Source: Dictyostelium discoideum (lineage: Eukaryota). From it: a DNA stretch of 64,000 nt. How positions within the stretch are numbered: the stretch's first letter is position 1; each line of letters begins with the position of its first letter. Below, piece by piece: positions 2,074 through 10,861 of this stretch. The DNA is taken from NCBI GenBank assembly GCA_000004695.1, contig CM000155.2:1600001-1664000 (forward strand). The letters are read 5' to 3'. A program made the translations under genes and the position numbers. The notes under the pieces were generated by a model. It was given only the letters and a program-made list of their open reading frames with translations. It was not told the DNA's origin and made no database searches.

Positions 2074-3185
2074 TACGTTTTAAAGTATCTAATAAATATT
2101 CATCTGCTATAATAATTAATTGTAATACCATATCAATATTATCTTCATTTAATGAATCTGAATATAAATATTCAATCATTTTTCTAAAAACAGCAGGTTC
2201 ATAATTTACAATTTCAATTTCTTTTAATTGACTCTCTTTCATATCATTTTGAAACATTCCTTGAAATTTTTGGCATCTGGACGATAAAATATCTTTTTTT
2301 TTTTTTTATTTTTTTATTTTTTTTTTTTGGGAATAAATGTTAGTTTTTAGAAATAAATAAATAAAAAATAAATTAAAAATATACAAACTTTTATGAGAAA
2401 GTAAAAGTGAACCATCTAATAATTTAAAAGCAATATCACTATAAACTGGATTATTAAATAAAGAACCAATATTATTTACAAAGATTGAATGTAGGTTATT
2501 TGCACGTAATTTATTTTTTAATTTTCTAACTACAATTGTTTCACCACTATTTAATCCAATCTTTATAAATTTAGAAATAGTTAATATGTATATATTTATT
2601 TATGTATATATATGTATATATGAATATTGAAATTTAAATATTTACATCATTAGGACATTGTTCAGGATCTATTCTATCTTGAAATAAAAATATTAATTGA
2701 GATTCTTCAATTGAAAATCTTTGTGAAATATGTCCAAATAATCTTTTGAATAGTGTATGTTTTTTCATTAAAAATGGTGGTAAACTTGTAGTTTGAATAC
2801 CAACTGGTAATATATATATTGTTATATTTTCAACTGAAGGTGGTGGTGTATTATTAGCAGATTGTTGTAGTTGAGTCTGTTGTGGTTGTGGTTGTGGTGG
2901 TTGTGGTTGTTGTATTGCTAATAATTGACCTGTTAAAGTTATTCCTCCATTATCACCACTTTGTCGTTGTTGTGCCTGTTGTGGCTGTAATGTTGGTGGA
3001 TTTGAAGTTGGAGTTGAAATTGTTGTAGATAACATATTTAAATTATTATTACTATTATTATTATTATTTATATTATTTATATTATTATTATTATTATTAT
3101 TTACATTATTTATAGTTGAATTTAAAGCTGCAGTATTTGAAGTTGTTATTGTATTTAGTCCAATTGTATTTAAATTAAATGACAT
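1647..3185 (-). CDS. BTB/POZ domain-containing protein (4 exons)
   Basis: True ATG at 3183-3185 (the ORF-track M at 3194 is GTG). Exon 1 to ~2646 (…DPEQCPND, donor GTAAAT). Exon 2 ~2560..2389 (IGLNSGETIVVRKL…YSDIAFKLLDGSLLLSHK; BTB N-terminal consensus DvtfkV.g..f.aHK). Exon 3 ~2292..2077 (ILSSRCQKFQGMFQ…EIEIVNYEPAVFRKMIEYLYSDSL…LLDTLK, donor GTAATT). Exon 4 ~1922..1647 (BACK-like tail). The (AAT)n tract 1982-2069 is intronic. Exon phases are consistent. Confidence 0.75.
1982..2069. repeat. (AAT)n microsatellite in BTB-gene intron 3
   Basis: Perfect repeat. Read on the minus strand it gives the poly-Tyr artefact in ORF 1982..2257. Confidence 0.95.
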
Positions 3186-3239
3186 TACATACACCTAATA
3201 CGTTTAATACAAATATTTGAACACAACAATAAAAACAAT

Positions 3240-3284
<45 letters not shown>

Positions 3285-3468
3285 AAAATAAAAAAAAATT
3301 TATAAAAAAAAAAAATAAAAATTAAAAATAATTTTTAATTAAATTTTAGACTTTTTTGTGAAAAAAAAAAAAAAAAAATAAAAAAATAAAAAAAAAAAAA
3401 AAAAAAAATAAAAAAAGGGAAAACTGGATTTTTTTTATTTTTTATTTTTATTTTTTTATTTTTTTATT

Positions 3469-4879
3469 TTAATCGAGTATACTTAAAAAGTCAATAGTTT
3501 TTCTGGAAGTACAAGCTTGACAATTACAAATAAAAGAATAAGTTTCTTTAAGAGTCGTTCTTCTTTTTTCAGTTGTTAATTTTTCACCATCTAAATAAGA
3601 TATGAAAAGTTCCTCACCTTTTTTAATTGGTCTTCTTGTACAGAAACGAATTGATTTATCATTTACAACTGGGGTTGCAATGAAAACATTTGGTTCGCAT
3701 GAATGGTTAAAGAAAGAACCTTGCATTAGAATACTTGCTAATTGTTGTGATGGAATCTCTTGGAAATCAAATGAATAGCCTAACTCATCCATTGGGTTTT
3801 TTTCAGAGAGAATTTTAATTCTAGAAGTTGGGAAAGCCACAGCATTCAATCTGATTATTGATTTAACACGATGATAAATCTCTTGAGTGATTTCACGATT
3901 TGAGAAAATTCCTTTTATAGATTGATAGATTTTCATATCTTTTCTACTTAAATATGAGGTTGTATGATTTTTTGATGGTTCAGTATGAACTAGTCTCTTT
4001 AAGAATTGGTCCATTTGCATTGAACGTAATGGTTCGTCTTGGTTACCACCAGTTGTATATTGCAATGAAAACACTTGTAACATTAATAAATACTCTGTTC
4101 TTTCTTCGTCATCCAATTTTGAAATATCATGATAAAATTTATTTAAAAAGTTTGTATGAACATTTGATGGTGTTCCACTGCATATTAATCTATGTCTTGC
4201 CATTCCCTGAGCTTCACATTCTGATGAACAAAATATAGCTTCATTACAATTTGGACAACAAACTCCACTAATAGAACCCAATGGTAAATTTGTCATACGA
4301 CTTAATGTATCCTCAATCTTTGGAAATTCTTTTGATTTTGATATCTCTCTATCATTTTGTAATTCAACTGGTTGCAATGATAAATGACAATTATTACAAT
4401 GTTCATCCTAAATAAAATAAAACATATGTTAATATTATGAAAAAATGTATATATATTATTTAAAAATTAATATTATTAATATTACATCATGTTTTTCATA
4501 TTTATGTTTTGCTAAATTTGTTGAAATTGAAAGTAATGAAGGTGCTTCAAAAAGTAATTCTTCTTCTTCAATATCTCTAGTTGCAAAGATACCTCTACCG
4601 TGAATTGGTGATTTCTTTACCATTGCATTACCCATTAAAGTTGATGATAAACCATTAAAGAATTCATAATCATCTTCATGATTTGGTACAATAACTGTAT
4701 CTGGATATAACATCATTTCTGCCTCTCTCTTTAAATCAACAATTTTTGGATTATGTATTAAAAGTAATGATTTTTCAAATGCAACAATTGCTTCATTATA
4801 TTTCTCTTTTCTAACTAAACAAATTCCTTTAATAACAAATGCTCTATATACAATAAAATATTATTATTATTATATATTC

Positions 4880-4933
<54 letters not shown>

Positions 4934-5457
4934 TAATCAATCACATTAATTAATTAATTCAATACATACTCTGATAAAATTTCACCTTCAGTTGAATTTT
5001 TAATAACTGTATTACAATCAATGATTGCATCATCTAAACGTGATAATGATTCTAATACTGTTGCACGTTGAATACGAACTGCATAATCGGCTGGTGTATG
5101 ACTAAGTACCCAATAATATCTTTTTAATGCTTCTTCAGGTTTACCATTCATAAATTCATCATATGCTTTTTGAATTGCAATTTGAATACTATAACTTAAA
5201 TGTAATGATGCTGGATCAACTGGTATTTTTGGTTTTATTTGTGGTGCATTTTGAAATCCTTTAATCTCTTCTTCAATATCTTCTTTACTTCTAATTGTAC
5301 TATTTATTGCATCTTTTGAATTTTTTGTTGAGAAAATATCTGACCCACCACCACTACCACCTGTACAAAAATATCTTGTTAAATTATTATAATTATTATT
5401 AAAATAAAATTTAATTAAATTTTCATTCTTTTTTAAACTTTGTAATCTATTTAACAT
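3469..5457 (-). CDS. SET and MYND domain (SMYD-like) lysine methyltransferase with N-terminal TPR repeats (3 exons)
   Basis: ATG 5455-5457. Exon 1 5457..~4970 (TPR-like: ALKRYYWVLSHTPADYAVRIQRATVLESL…, donor GTATGT). Intron ~4844-4969 (126 nt) contains the (TCAA)n tract. Exon 2 ~4843..4486 (AFVIKGICLVRKEKYNEAIVAFEKSL… then VKKSPIHGRGIFATRDIEEEELLFEAP, a SET N-terminal motif). Intron 4408-4485 (78 nt). Exon 3 4407..3469 (MYND-type Cys cluster DEHCNNCH…CCPNCNEAIFCSSECEAQGMARHRLIC, SET signature FFNHSCEPN, ELFISY). Total 594 aa. Phases verified as multiples of 3. Confidence 0.8.
4882..4944. repeat. (TCAA)n / (CAAT)n tetranucleotide microsatellite, ~15 units, intronic
   Basis: caatcaatcaatc… seen directly. 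Lies in intron 1 of the SMYD-like gene. Confidence 0.95.
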
Positions 5458-5575
5458 TTTCTCCAAAAATAAAAAAAAAAAAAAAGATATTTTTATTTGT
5501 TGATTGAGAAAATAAAATAAAATGAAATGTTTGAAAAAAAAATATTTCAAACGTTTGGTGAGACTCGGGTGGGTC

Positions 5576-5636
<61 letters not shown>

Positions 5637-6037
5637 AATTTTTATTTTAAATTTTTTTTAATTTTTATTTTTTTTAACACACTTTTCATTTTCTTGTAAA
5701 TGAATTTATTTATTTTCACACCAACCAAGATTTAATATTACTTTTTATTTTTTTTTTTTTAATTTTTTTTAAAATCGTATTAGTTGATTTTAAAATCTAA
5801 ATGAAAAAGATTAATTATTATGTTTTATTATATACTTATAAATTATATAAAACATATTAATTGATTTTTTCTTTTAAAATCAATTAATATGTTTTAAAAT
5901 CAACCGATACAATTTTAAAAAAAAATGATTTATATTTACAATAAAAAATAATATATTATATTATTCTTTTATTCATTTTTTTTTTATTTTTAATTATTTA
6001 AAAAATCCATCTTTTTTTTTTTTTTTTGATAGAGTTT

Positions 6038-6364
6038 TTATTCATAGTAACGAATAATCCATTCACAAATTGCAGAAGCTTTTGGTTGATCTTCAACTTC
6101 AAAAGTTAATTTAATAACAGCTTGAGCACCACCTGAAACTGGTGTTAATTCTTGTAATTCAAATTTACATCTTAAATTACCATCGACTGGTACTGGCGAT
6201 AAGAATCTAATTTTATTGAAACCATAATTTACACCATATTTAATACCTTCAACATTTGGCATAACTTCTTCTGCAAACATTGGTGCTAATGATAATGTTA
6301 AGAAACCATGTGCAATTGGACTATAATATATATATAAATATTAATAATTAGTATATACATTGAG

Positions 6365-6407
<43 letters not shown>

Positions 6408-6826
6408 ATAGAGGATAGATAATTTACCCACCAAAAGGACTTTCAGATTTAGCTCTTTCTGGATCAATATGAATCCATTGGAAATCACCAGTTGATTCAG
6501 CAAAAGAGTTTACACGATCTTGAGTGATTTTAAAGTATTCACTTGTACCAATCTCTTTACCAACTAAAGTTTTCATCTCTTCTAAACCTTTAAGAGTTTT
6601 AGTATTTCTTGCATTTCTTTGAGCTTGTGCTCTAATAACAAGTTCTCTTAATGATGCATCTGTATTATTTGATGAGAGATAAAAACTTTCTAATAATTTA
6701 AGGTTAATTTTTTTTTTTTTTTTTTAATATTCTGTTTTTTTTTTTTTTAAAAAAAAAATTACCATTTGATGATGAACATAAATGATTAGTTAATGTTTCA
6801 ACTCTTCTAATTTGTTGTTGATTCAT
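6038..6826 (-). CDS. MaoC-like (R)-specific enoyl-CoA hydratase / 3-hydroxyacyl-thioester dehydratase (hotdog fold), 3 exons, ~202 aa
   Basis: ATG 6824-6826 (MNQQQIRRVETLTNHLCSSSN). Intron ~6690-6762. Exon 2 6689..6428 (…ESTGDFQWIHIDPERAKSESPFGG). Intron ~6321-6427. Exon 3 6320..6038 (PIAHGFLTLSLAPMF…YGVNYGFNKIRFLSPVPVDGNL). These are the classic MaoC motifs D-P-E…FGG-IAHG. Total is 609 nt including the stop. Confidence 0.75.
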
Positions 6827-7076
6827 TTTCTATAAATTTAATATAAACAATTCAAAAAAAAAAAAAAATAAAAAAAAAAATAAAAAAAATAAAAAAAAAA
6901 AAAACAAAAAAAATTAAAAAAATAAAAAAAATAAAAAAAAATAAAAAAAAAAATTAAAATTGAAAATGATATTCTGGAAATTTAAAATAAATAAATAAAT
7001 AATCTAAATAAAAAAATAAAATCAAATGAATGATTATAAATTTAATATACAATATTATTTATTTATTTTTTATATT

Positions 7077-7319
7077 TTAATAGAACTCTTCTTTGATAAC
7101 TTTACCATCTTTCCATTCTTGTAAAGCCCATTGAGTTTTCGCAACTTTGTAACCACCATAAGTGAAATTCATAAACATTTCATAGGCAGTATTATTTCCA
7201 TCAACTAAGATTTTGGTTATTCTTGCTTCATGAATGGTTGCATTATTAACAATTGGTTCTTAAGCTTTATGATTTGCTTCTTTACCAACACGGTTTGTTG
7301 AATCATCATTTTCATACAT
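7077..7319 (-). pseudogene. small conserved-looking ORF (~80 aa, NTF2/SnoaL-like feel) interrupted by an in-frame TAA; possible upstream mini-exon 7463-7486 (MSIKENLE)
   Basis: Contiguous minus-strand translation: MYENDDSTNRVGKEANHKA*EPIVNNATIHEARITKILVDGNNTAYEMFMNFTYGGYKVAKTQWALQEWKDGKVIKEEFY*. The internal stop is the reverse complement of plus 7260-7262. No intron can bridge it. Confidence 0.35.
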
Positions 7320-8383
7320 TAAAATATCCTTTTAAATTTAAAAATAAATTAATTTATTATTCATAAAAATAAAAAAATAATAAAAAAAATAAAAAAATAA
7401 AAAATAAAATACAAACATGGTAATTTTTATCAAAATTTCCAAAATTTTATTATCTTGGATACTTCTAAATTTTCTTTAATTGACATCTTAATAATTTTTT
7501 TTTTTTTTTTTTTAAAACTTAAAAAATTTTTAATTTATTTAAATTTATTTATTTTTTTTTTTTATATTTGTAATTTTTAATTTATTATTTTTATTAATAT
7601 ATTTTTCGGAATATCTTTTTTTTTTTTTTTTTTTTTTCTAAACGATCTGGGGGAGTATTCCGGAATCGAGATTTATAGTACAAATTTATTTTGTATTTTT
7701 TTTTTTCAAAATTTATGGGTAATATTCCACACGAACAAATCTTTGAGTTTTTACTGGAGCCACTGGATGAACCATCATACATATTCTTAAATCATTATAT
7801 TTTTCATTTTTAATACAAGACATTTTAATATTTTGATTTATATTTTTATTATTTTTCAATGAGAAATTATTTAAATTTTCTATATATATATATATAATAA
7901 AAAACATGATTTTAGTTAGTAAATATAATATTTTCTTTTTTTTTTTTTATTTAATTCTTTGTTTTTTTTTATTTTTTATTAATTTATTTTTTTTATTTTT
8001 TTTTTTTTTATTAAAAATATATACATACCAAATAACATTTTTTTTATTAATTATAAATATATTTTAAATAATAATTTAGTTTGAAATTAAATGAATAAAA
8101 AAAAAAAAAAAAAGTGTTTAAATAATTTTTTTTAATTTTATTATCAATATTTAAATCTTAAAATTTATATAATCAAATTTAGTAATAGTATTTTTTTAAA
8201 ATTTTTATTTATTTCATCATATATTATCATAAAAAAAAGTATTAATTTTATTAAATTGTTTCACTGAAGGTATGACACAAAAAAATATTGACCAACACAA
8301 AATAAAACAATTGGTAGAAATTTGTAAAATTTAAAAATAAAAAAAATAAAACAAAATAAAAAATAAATAATGATAAAATAAGG

Positions 8384-8421
<38 letters not shown>

Positions 8422-9067
8422 TAACGCACAATTCAAATAATCACGAAAAAAGCTTTTTAAAAAAAACATCGCAAAAAAATAAAGAACACCAATGTAAATT
8501 AAATCAATATGAAAGTGTGGAAAATTAAATATCTATAAGGAAATAGGAGGTTGAAAATGCACAGAAATAATTTTATAACCATAAATAATAATTTTTATTT
8601 CCCACACCATTTTTGATAATGTAAAAAAAAAATGAACAAGGATAATAATACTTCTTTACAAACAAAACAACACAAAAAAAAAAAAAAAAAAAAAAAAAAC
8701 AACACTTTCCAATAAAATTACAATAGCTTGCAAAAAATAATTATTGAAAATAAATAATGTTATTTAGATCATATTACAAATTTAACACCACTAATACAAA
8801 AAAAGAAATAATTTAAAAATAAAAATAAAAATAAAAAAAAAAAAATTAAAAATTAAAAATAAAAATAAGATATAAAAAAAAAAAAAAAATAAATGGTGAG
8901 AATTATTTCTTTTCAAATTATAACATTTTTGATATCTTTTTTTTTTTTATATTATTTTATTTTATTTTATTTATTTTATTTTAATTAAAAAATTATATAA
9001 ATATATATTATTTTTAATGATAATCTTTTTTTTTATTTTTATTTTTATTTTATTTTATTTTACTATT

Positions 9068-10039
9068 TTAATTTCTACTTCTTCTTTCTATTTGATCAAT
9101 AACATTATTTGATTTTGTAAATCTTTGACCTCTTAAAAATTGATCATCTTTGAATATACCCTTATAGATATGGGAGTAATTATTAAGTTGACCTATACCA
9201 TTGAATTTACCATCACGGAATTCACCTTGATAAATGTAATTTGGAGTTACAATTTTACCAGTACCATTAAAGTGTTGATATTTCTCTTTGTATGGATAAA
9301 AGAAACCAACAAAAGCACCAACTAACGTTGAGCCTAAATGACAAGCATGATCCAAAGGTGATCTTCTTGAAAAAAGGGGTAAAAATAAACCACAGAAATC
9401 GAAAAGTGCCAATGCTGCCAATACTTGAGAACCTTCGAAATCAAACATTGGTAAGAATATAATACTTACACGTGAATTTTCAAATAAAACAGAGGATGCA
9501 AAGAGTGAGAAAACACTACCACTTGCACCAATCGAGGGAACTACATAACTTCCCACCAACAATTTATAAGTTAAACTTGTCATTGAACCAAATAAACCAC
9601 CCAAGAAATAGAGTATTAAGAAATCACGAGTTCCTAAATGATCATAAGCCGTACTACCAAATGATGCCAATGCATACATATTAAAAAGTATATGAAGTCC
9701 TTCTGTATGTGTAAATGTTGAAAGAATTAAAGATGATGGATACTTATTAAGTGATGATGGTGAAAGGAAGAAATGTGGACCAAATCTTTCTAAAAATCCT
9801 TGAATCTTTAATAAACGCCATACTATAATATTTGCTGCAATTAATGAACCAATCACTAAATATTTCTCTGTAATTTTATATTTTAAAATTTTAAAATAGT
9901 ATGGTTTTTCTTCAATATCTTGTTTACCATTATCATTATCATTTGAATTATTACCAAAACCTAAAAATCCTAACCCAACTCCAACAAATGAAAATAACAT
10001 ATTTTTTTTATTTCTATTTAAAAAATTTAAAATTTTTTC

Positions 10040-10078
<39 letters not shown>

Positions 10079-10390
10079 TTCATTATTTTCATTATTTTCA
10101 TTATTATTATTATTTTCATTATTTTTATTATTATTTTCATAACCTTTATCATTAATATTTGTTGAATAGAATCTATTATTATTAAATGAATTGATAGTAA
10201 AATTATTATTGATTAATGATGATGGTGTTGTTGTTGATAATGTATGATGGTGGTTATTTGTTACATTATAAATCAAATTAACATTTTTAAAATTTGGTGT
10301 AATTTTTGTAAAGTTTGTTTTTATATGTTTAACTTGATTTTTATTTAATATATTTTTTGATATTTTTTTAAAAATTGACGAACTTATCAT
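9068..10390 (-). CDS. rhomboid-family intramembrane serine protease (PARL-like 1+6 TM topology) with C-terminal MORN repeats, single exon, 440 aa
   Basis: HILFNMYALASFG (TM2 H..N motif). GASGSVFSLFA (catalytic GxSG). HACHLGSTLVGAF (catalytic His in TM6). Lys-rich N-terminus resembles a mitochondrial presequence. C-terminal MORN-like repeats: YIYQGEFRDGKFNGIGQL, HIYKGIFKDDQFLRGQRF. Confidence 0.85.
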
Positions 10391-10861
10391 TTTTTTGTTT
10401 TTTTAGAGTGTTGATAGAAAAAAAAAATAAAAATAAAAAATATGATCACTAATCACAAGTGCATAAAAAATAAAAAAAAAAATAAAAAACAATTTAAAAA
10501 AACCAAAAAGTCAAAATTTCAAAAAAAAAAAAATACACATTTAAATTTGTTTTCAAATTAACATTAACCATTTTTTAAAAAATAGATAATATGGAATAAT
10601 TATTAATTTTAAATTTATTTGTTAAAAAAATGAAAATTGTATCTCAATAATATATATTTATATTTTTCTGAATAAATTATTTAATTGTATTAAAATAAAA
10701 AAAAAAAATAAATCCACCAGGCAAATTTAAAATTTTTTTATTTTAAAATTTTTTAATATTTTTATTTTATTATTACTTATTATTACTTATTATTATTATT
10801 ATTATTTATTTTTTAATTTTTTTTAATTTTTTTTTTTTTTTTTTTTTTTAATTTTTTTTTT

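Follow-up and report, generated by a model that had tools for sequence, protein, structure and literature searches.

Does a minus-strand reading frame that is interrupted by an in-frame stop codon belong to a working gene, or is it what remains of one? The question is raised by positions 7328–7077 of the window (the whole 64-kb stretch of DNA that was analyzed, with a G+C content of ∼20%), whose genes encode products identical to Dictyostelium discoideum AX4 proteins (e.g., the MaoC-like protein XP_001733059.1 and the 58-aa DDB_G0292526). The frame translates as DILMYENDDSTNRVGKEANHKA, a stop, and EPIVNNATIHEARITKILVDGNNTAYEMFMNFTYGGYKVAKTQWALQEWKDGKVIKEEFY, followed by a second stop; the part after the internal stop begins EPIVNN, and the long-frame translation ends in KEEFY. 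The internal stop is a TAA at 7260–7262, and the terminal stop occupies 7079–7077 (minus strand). The initial annotation had described a ∼80-aa, NTF2/SnoaL-like protein whose frame was broken by this single stop and which began in an upstream mini-exon, MSIKENLE, at 7463–7486. It left the choice between a young pseudogene, a nonsense allele or sequencing error, and something stranger. Translation bore out the minus-strand frame, the position of the TAA, and the position of MSIKENLE. The interpretation placed on them was in part different from the one reached here.

The parent family, its gene structure, and its fold

A conceptual product, in which the internal stop of the translation was replaced, was used for Pfam and protein searches. 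The joined ORF has homologs: in a search of 5.8 billion proteins, the conceptual product matched 13 dictyostelid proteins with E values of 3e-42 to 1e-30. It also scored 25.4 bits against Pfam SnoaL_5 (PF20409, NTF2-like superfamily), for which the cut-off is 24.1. The match is confined to profile positions 47–117 of 118 (the C-terminal 70 positions), and ∼45 N-terminal positions are absent. Because of the homology to dictyostelid proteins and because the SnoaL_5 cut-off is passed, the frame at 7328–7077 is not a chance ORF, and its description as NTF2/SnoaL-like was well founded. When the conceptual protein was used in a tblastn search for a second SnoaL copy within the 64-kb window, only its own locus was recovered. 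Scans of the window for tRNA genes and Rfam families gave no matches.

The 13 homologs are 112–131 aa long (nearly all 112–114 aa) and include the AX4 proteins DDB_G0284631 and DDB_G0270080, three D. purpureum proteins, and one from Acytostelium. All of them start MS(I/V)(K/R)ENLE-AIIKGIQENRILEVFDKYYH-D(V/I)VMYE, and 21 residues therefore separate MSIKENLE from the start of the long frame. The parent was a protein of 112 aa and not, as had been supposed, one of ∼80 aa. DDB_G0284631 and DDB_G0270080 are intact AX4 paralogs of the same family and length class, annotated as SnoaL-like domain-containing, to which the conceptual translation is 70% and 65% identical, respectively. DDB_G0284631 also shares a two-exon structure with the window locus. 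Unlike that locus, both genes sit elsewhere, DDB_G0284631 being clustered by Band_7, DUF229, and ComC-like genes.

The ancestral gene was shown to have two exons (87 and 252 nt) separated by one phase-0 intron and to lie between the rhomboid-protease and MaoC-dehydratase genes. The intron follows codon 29, at the same place in the nine intact genes examined. Orthologous introns range from 70 to 161 nt (70–73 nt in the closest orthologs), and all start with GTTTGT. The window locus has this gene structure, with the phase-0 intron after codon 29 and the GTTTGT donor, and its sequence matches both the profile and the members of the dictyostelid 112-aa family. What it lacks is an uninterrupted frame over the whole domain (profile positions 1–118; 112 aa). 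It is the relic of a SnoaL_5 family member rather than a coding member.

The AlphaFold2 model of the intact syntenic ortholog from D. dimigraforme (P0001) has a pLDDT of 93.7 and is predicted to be an α+β NTF2-like cone, with helices at residues 3–15, 19–26, and 45–58, a strand at 27–35, and four long strands spanning 59–111. Codon 52 falls in helix 45–58, upstream of the strands at 59–111, which make up most of the β sheet in the predicted α+β fold. The best Foldseek match to this model was 3hk4 (E = 5e-11, TM 0.86, 26% identity), which is Mlr7391 from Mesorhizobium loti. This is the nearest solved structure, and the intact-ortholog model can be superposed on it; a fold of this kind is beyond the coding capacity of the window copy. 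The family profile also found PDB 3hk4 by sequence (E = 1e-3). Limonene epoxide hydrolases and ketosteroid isomerase came next in the Foldseek search, at the level of fold only; the epoxide hydrolases are 9–19% identical to the intact-ortholog model, which again is a fold-level likeness. An exhaustive profile search of 1.84 billion proteins yielded only 294 representative relatives, of which most have a single domain and a length of 110–125 aa. The profile and fold searches confirm a small NTF2-like family and suggest no function for it. A literature search covering the SnoaL_5 dictyostelid family, Dictyostelium SnoaL proteins or pseudogenes, and the identifiers of neighboring genes found nothing on the family or the locus.

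Anatomy of the locus and its lesions

Lesions were mapped by DNA alignment to five intact family genes and to the closest orthologs, together with a codon-by-codon table, and the exon-1 deletions (13, 1, and 3 nt) were scored relative to every intact relative. Exon 1 (7486–7417, minus strand) is degenerate. It has 70 nt instead of the 87 nt (29 codons) of the intact genes and is for that reason out of frame with exon 2. It opens with ATG TCA ATT AAA GAA AAT TTA GAA (7486–7463), followed by GTATCC. The initial annotation took GTATCC as the splice donor of a mini-exon, but it is the scar of a 13-nt deletion between 7463 and 7462. The sequence GCAATTATTAAAG (codons 9–13) is kept in all intact relatives, and its loss joins GAA-G to TATCC, forming a new GTATCC that is absent from all relatives. 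The ancestral donor is GTTTGT at 7416. A second frameshift arises from the loss of 1 nt in a T run at 7435–7432 (TTTTT to TTTT, codon 22), as identified in the ortholog alignment and the codon table. At the exon 1/intron boundary (7417/7416), the final exon-1 codon (AAT or GAT, residue 29) has been deleted, a loss of 3 nt, and close by TAT has become AAT (Y26N). Read from the ATG as it stands, exon 1 gives MSIKENLEVSKIIKFWKF followed by two stops. These are the TGA TAA at 7432–7427 (present codons 19–20), which the ATG frame meets past the 13-nt deletion.

The ancestral phase-0 intron (7416–7329; 88 nt, GTTTGT...AAAAG) is positioned as in all intact family genes. Exon 2 (7328–7077) comprises 83 codons and a stop, has no indels, and is collinear with the intact orthologs except for the nonsense codon. 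This TAA (7262–7260) stands at family position 52, which is invariant in the family alignment: the residue is Glu in 16 of 16 intact relatives compared, and the codon is GAA in all nine that were seen at the DNA level. Downstream of the TAA, the encoded segment ITKILVDGNNTAYEMFMNFTYGGYK differs from the paralogs at N83 and Y89. The description of a single stop holds for exon 2 but not for the locus overall, where exon 1 adds three more disabling deletions. Reading from the ATG stops after 18 codons, or after 30 codons if GTATCC serves as the donor, and splicing at the ancestral sites leaves exon 2 out of frame and full of stops. Against this, the relic looks tidy. Exon 2 is without indels, and neither the ATG nor the final stop nor either ancestral splice site has been lost, which counts against the locus being a pseudogene.

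The neighborhoods of the rhomboid, MaoC, and SET orthologs were compared across related genomes. Four of these have an intact 112-aa SnoaL_5 gene with rhomboid on one side and MaoC on the other: L007 and L011 (both labeled D. discoideum), L012 (labeled D. cf. discoideum), and L006 (D. dimigraforme). The gene order rhomboid/SnoaL/MaoC/SET is common to these genomes and the window. Two 112-aa syntenic orthologs labeled D. discoideum, ACTFIW_006979 (GCA_054859355.1) and ACTFIR_008692 (GCA_054859385.1), resemble the window locus in their neighbors (MFS, rhomboid, SnoaL, MaoC, SET, and BTB), intron position, and GTTTGT donor, and differ from its exon 2 at 11–14 of 252 nt. Unlike the window locus, they are intact, with an 87-nt exon 1, GAA at codon 52, and G37, R49, S54, and F55 kept. 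The strains that carry them are ∼4% from AX4 in this region and are not close kin of AX4.

Because intact orthologs occupy the syntenic site in L006, L007, L011, and L012, the locus represents decay in place and is neither a retrocopy nor a duplicate fragment. We are highly confident that 7486–7077 (minus strand) is a unitary, unprocessed, in-place pseudogene, a paralog of the dictyostelid 112-aa SnoaL_5/NTF2-like family. It combines homology with two deletions that shift the frame, a lost codon, and a nonsense codon, and it retains the intron and the position of its intact syntenic orthologs. Of the options put forward by the initial annotation, the pseudogene was the right one, albeit with multiple lesions. 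In the AX4-type lineage, the four disabling lesions are the 13-nt deletion, the 1-nt deletion, the loss of the last exon-1 codon, and the change of GAA to TAA at codon 52. To judge from the reading frames and the predicted fold, the exon-1 lesions would destroy helices 1 and 2 and the TAA would fall in helix 3, so that any product would end before the strands at 59–111 and no functional protein would come from the locus. AX4 would have tolerated the loss because at least three paralogs are still intact there: DDB_G0284631, the gene adjoining it (identified in the AX4-like assembly L001), and DDB_G0270080. DDB_G0284631 and DDB_G0270080 are presumably functional copies that make the window locus redundant.

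A separate observation concerns the species labels. Across window positions 3000–10500, L007 and L011, although labeled D. discoideum, show many indels and a divergence of ∼4% at aligned sites relative to AX4, and their rhomboid orthologs are only 92% identical in protein to that of AX4. Divergence of this order seems to be above the within-species expectation and may point to cryptic lineages under the D. discoideum name.

Constraint, repeated loss, and alternative readings

Exon 2 of the window diverges from that of L011 by 4.4%. In the same comparison, the two intergenic spacers around the pseudogene diverge by 3.5–7.6% and the MaoC exons by 0.5%. Changes were polarized by parsimony in a five-way codon table (window, L011, L007, L012, and L006). 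Essentially all of the exon-2 differences between the window and L011 were assigned to the window lineage; codon 66 is homoplasious, and its polarity is ambiguous. The window-lineage changes in exon 2 are V32L, G37D, R49H, E52 to stop, S54P, F55I, N89Y, and three silent changes, and exon 1 contributes Y26N. The majority are GC-to-AT. The 13-protein family alignment shows no variation at G37 or F55 and hardly any at R49; two of the eight amino acid replacements in the relic (G37D and F55I) thus fall at residues that are invariant in the other members compared. The Nei–Gojobori dN/dS was 0.58 for the window versus L011, compared with 0.06–0.21 among intact orthologs. The ratio of replacement to silent changes (8:3) differed from that of L011 versus L006 (8:21; Fisher p = 0.014), whereas the difference from the closer comparator, L011 versus L012 (7:8), was not significant (Fisher p = 0.25), and the counts are small. 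Together, the exon-2 rate, the dN/dS value, and the first of these tests point to relaxed constraint. The relic has been drifting for most of the time since the AX4 lineage split from the nearest sampled lineage, which is ∼4% divergent from AX4 in the region. The epithet "young" used in the initial annotation is true only in the limited sense of that ∼4% split.

The syntenic SnoaL_5 copy is also dead in another genome labeled D. cf. discoideum (L016:4099–4287; GCA_054859235.1). It is like the window copy in its syntenic position, its parent gene, and its untranslatable state but unlike it in its lesions, which are an AAA-to-TAA change at codon 18 and an internal deletion of ∼230 nt that takes the intron and most of exon 2. 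Since this copy retains the 13 nt lost in AX4 and carries other lesions, the two inactivations are separate events. In D. citrinum, the syntenic site of two assemblies (L008 and L013) yielded no trace of a SnoaL gene. There, homology to the window ends no more than ∼10 nt upstream of the SnoaL ATG and is regained immediately upstream of MaoC. Both assemblies have ∼1.27 kb of unrelated AT-rich DNA (L008:8944–10213) in place of window 7497–6919, and no coding-looking ORF was found in it. D. firmibasis has a Pirin gene at the corresponding spot, and in D. purpureum, one of the dictyostelids proposed for comparison by the initial annotation, synteny is broken. A tblastn search for SnoaL remnants in the syntenic regions of D. 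citrinum, D. firmibasis, and D. purpureum gave a best E of about 1. The blastn matches in these regions fell in the AT-rich intron only and were rejected as low-complexity noise. By these comparisons, the SnoaL locus has been lost at least three times independently, in the AX4 type, in L016, and in D. citrinum, and its decay in L016 and absence from D. citrinum speak for the dispensability of the gene.

Decayed SnoaL_5 copies, with in-frame stops and deletions, were also seen in the DDB_G0284631 cluster of AX4-like and related assemblies (L001:11428–11637 and L003:11486–11810, both on the minus strand). One strain has a third intact gene in this cluster (L004:10001–10473, P0008). Because decayed copies are present in the DDB_G0284631 cluster as well, the SnoaL_5 family seems to show birth-and-death turnover at more than one locus.

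At least three losses within a narrow clade, set against strong purifying selection in sister lineages (dN/dS 0.06–0.2), raise the idea that a SnoaL-like protein, acting as an enzyme or binding protein for small molecules, might have been lost repeatedly for adaptive or condition-dependent reasons and not through neutral decay of a redundant copy. We consider this improbable. A smaller chance attaches to the proposal that the locus, dead at the protein level, has been kept as a regulatory RNA, for example one that works as an antisense or decoy transcript against the intact paralogs, with their ∼90% identity in exon 2. In favor of this, no damage is seen in the upstream region, ATG, splice sites, or terminal stop, and exon 2 is very similar in DNA to DDB_G0284631. 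However, exon 2 has changed at the intergenic rate, mostly from GC to AT, which indicates no constraint, and the locus is truncated in one relative (L016) and absent from another (D. citrinum). Because of this neutral drift and the repeated loss in relatives, an RNA-level role for the relic appears unlikely.

The production of a shortened protein is yet harder to uphold. A splice from 7462 (GTATCC) to the acceptor at 7329 does restore the frame, giving MSIKENLE-DILMYEN..., and if the TAA were then read through or recoded, a protein of ∼91 aa would result, without residues 9–29; the conceptual product does pass the SnoaL_5 cut-off. Such a protein would, however, depend on a GT donor that is a deletion scar found in no relative, would retain little of predicted helix 1 and nothing of predicted helix 2, and would have replacements at the invariant residues 37 and 55 in an exon that drifts at the intergenic rate. 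Programmed readthrough or recoding is marked by a conserved stop with constrained coding sequence on both sides. Here the stop is not conserved, the orthologs and paralogs having GAA (Glu); the frame upstream is destroyed, and the sequence downstream drifts. TAA followed by G is not known as a leaky context. Selenocysteine uses TGA, and the codon here is TAA. The suggestion of something stranger than a pseudogene finds no support, the stop being present in no ortholog and the upstream frame being lost.

It is scarcely credible that the gene is functional, with a TAA that arose either through faulty sequencing or assembly or as a nonsense allele private to one laboratory strain. Exon 2 is otherwise a clean open frame without indels, but the TAA and all three exon-1 deletions recur in L005 (GCA_054883475.1), a separate AX4-like assembly. 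Over 7.5 kb, L005 shows three mismatches to the window and some homopolymer-length differences, and it is identical across the whole pseudogene, all four lesions included; its annotation calls no gene there. Because this second assembly has identical lesions, the sequencing error allowed for by the initial annotation is excluded. Four separate lesions and eight replacements are also beyond one base-calling error. The chance that the TAA lies in a short unrecognized intron and is spliced out of the mRNA is negligible: in-frame GT..AG pairs of 60, 66, 81, and 87 nt do flank the stop, contrary to the earlier statement that none did, and dictyostelid introns this short exist (70–73 nt in the closest orthologs), but all intact relatives code through the stretch without an intron, its excision would remove the invariant K45, A47, N48, K50, E52, F55, N58, I61, and E63, its composition is exon-like and not that of an AT-rich intron, and exon 1 would stay out of frame, so that the accompanying claim that the stop is not spliced out still stands.

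Neighboring genes and implications

DDB_G0292526 (58 aa, hypothetical) lies ∼230 nt upstream of the pseudogene and was rebuilt exactly from window 8038–8029 and 7879–7713 (minus strand). Conservation of its exon 2 is nearly perfect in L005, L007, L011, and L012, and the gene is recognizable in D. dimigraforme and D. citrinum. Because its substitutions in these two species are mostly silent and its stop is conserved, DDB_G0292526 is likely to be a genuine small gene. The newer assemblies call no gene there, no Pfam domain was detected in the product, and no homolog beyond AX4 was found in the protein collection. The sequence ACCCATAA, in a GC-richer conserved block (∼7655–7880), was considered as a possible DUSE promoter element of a non-coding RNA gene. 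This reading was rejected for 7879–7713 because that part is exon 2 of DDB_G0292526, with mostly silent substitutions, of which ACCCATAA forms the last codons and the stop. The conserved stretch at ∼7655–7712 lies downstream of this stop. Just past DDB_G0292526, at 7655–7672 (minus strand), is a short GC-rich element, CTCGATTCCGGAATAC, with TATAAAT ahead of it. AX4, L007, L011, and L012 share it without change, but a search of D. dimigraforme and D. citrinum that allowed up to three mismatches did not recover it. Possible identities are a 3′ UTR and a promoter element of the SnoaL gene.

On the other side of the pseudogene, the MaoC gene (6826–6038) and, downstream of it, the SET/TPR gene lie within 3500–6826 (minus strand). 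In MetaClust, an old 834-aa sequence, UPI00004E3FB5, clusters with the 202-aa MaoC protein as well as with the 594-aa SET protein. Possibly it is a fused model from earlier annotation that has since been divided into two genes (UniProt B0G197 and B0G196).

As an in-place pseudogene, the SnoaL_5 locus should carry a pseudogene flag and not a short SnoaL-like gene model with a mini-exon. A tidy "single stop in a conserved frame" can mask more lesions in an adjacent exon, and a deletion scar can resemble a splice donor. The finding matters little beyond annotation hygiene, its recurrent independent loss being the only mildly interesting aspect. In a small way, it illustrates how birth-and-death turnover, including repeated independent loss, proceeds in an uncharacterized NTF2-like family of the social amoebae.
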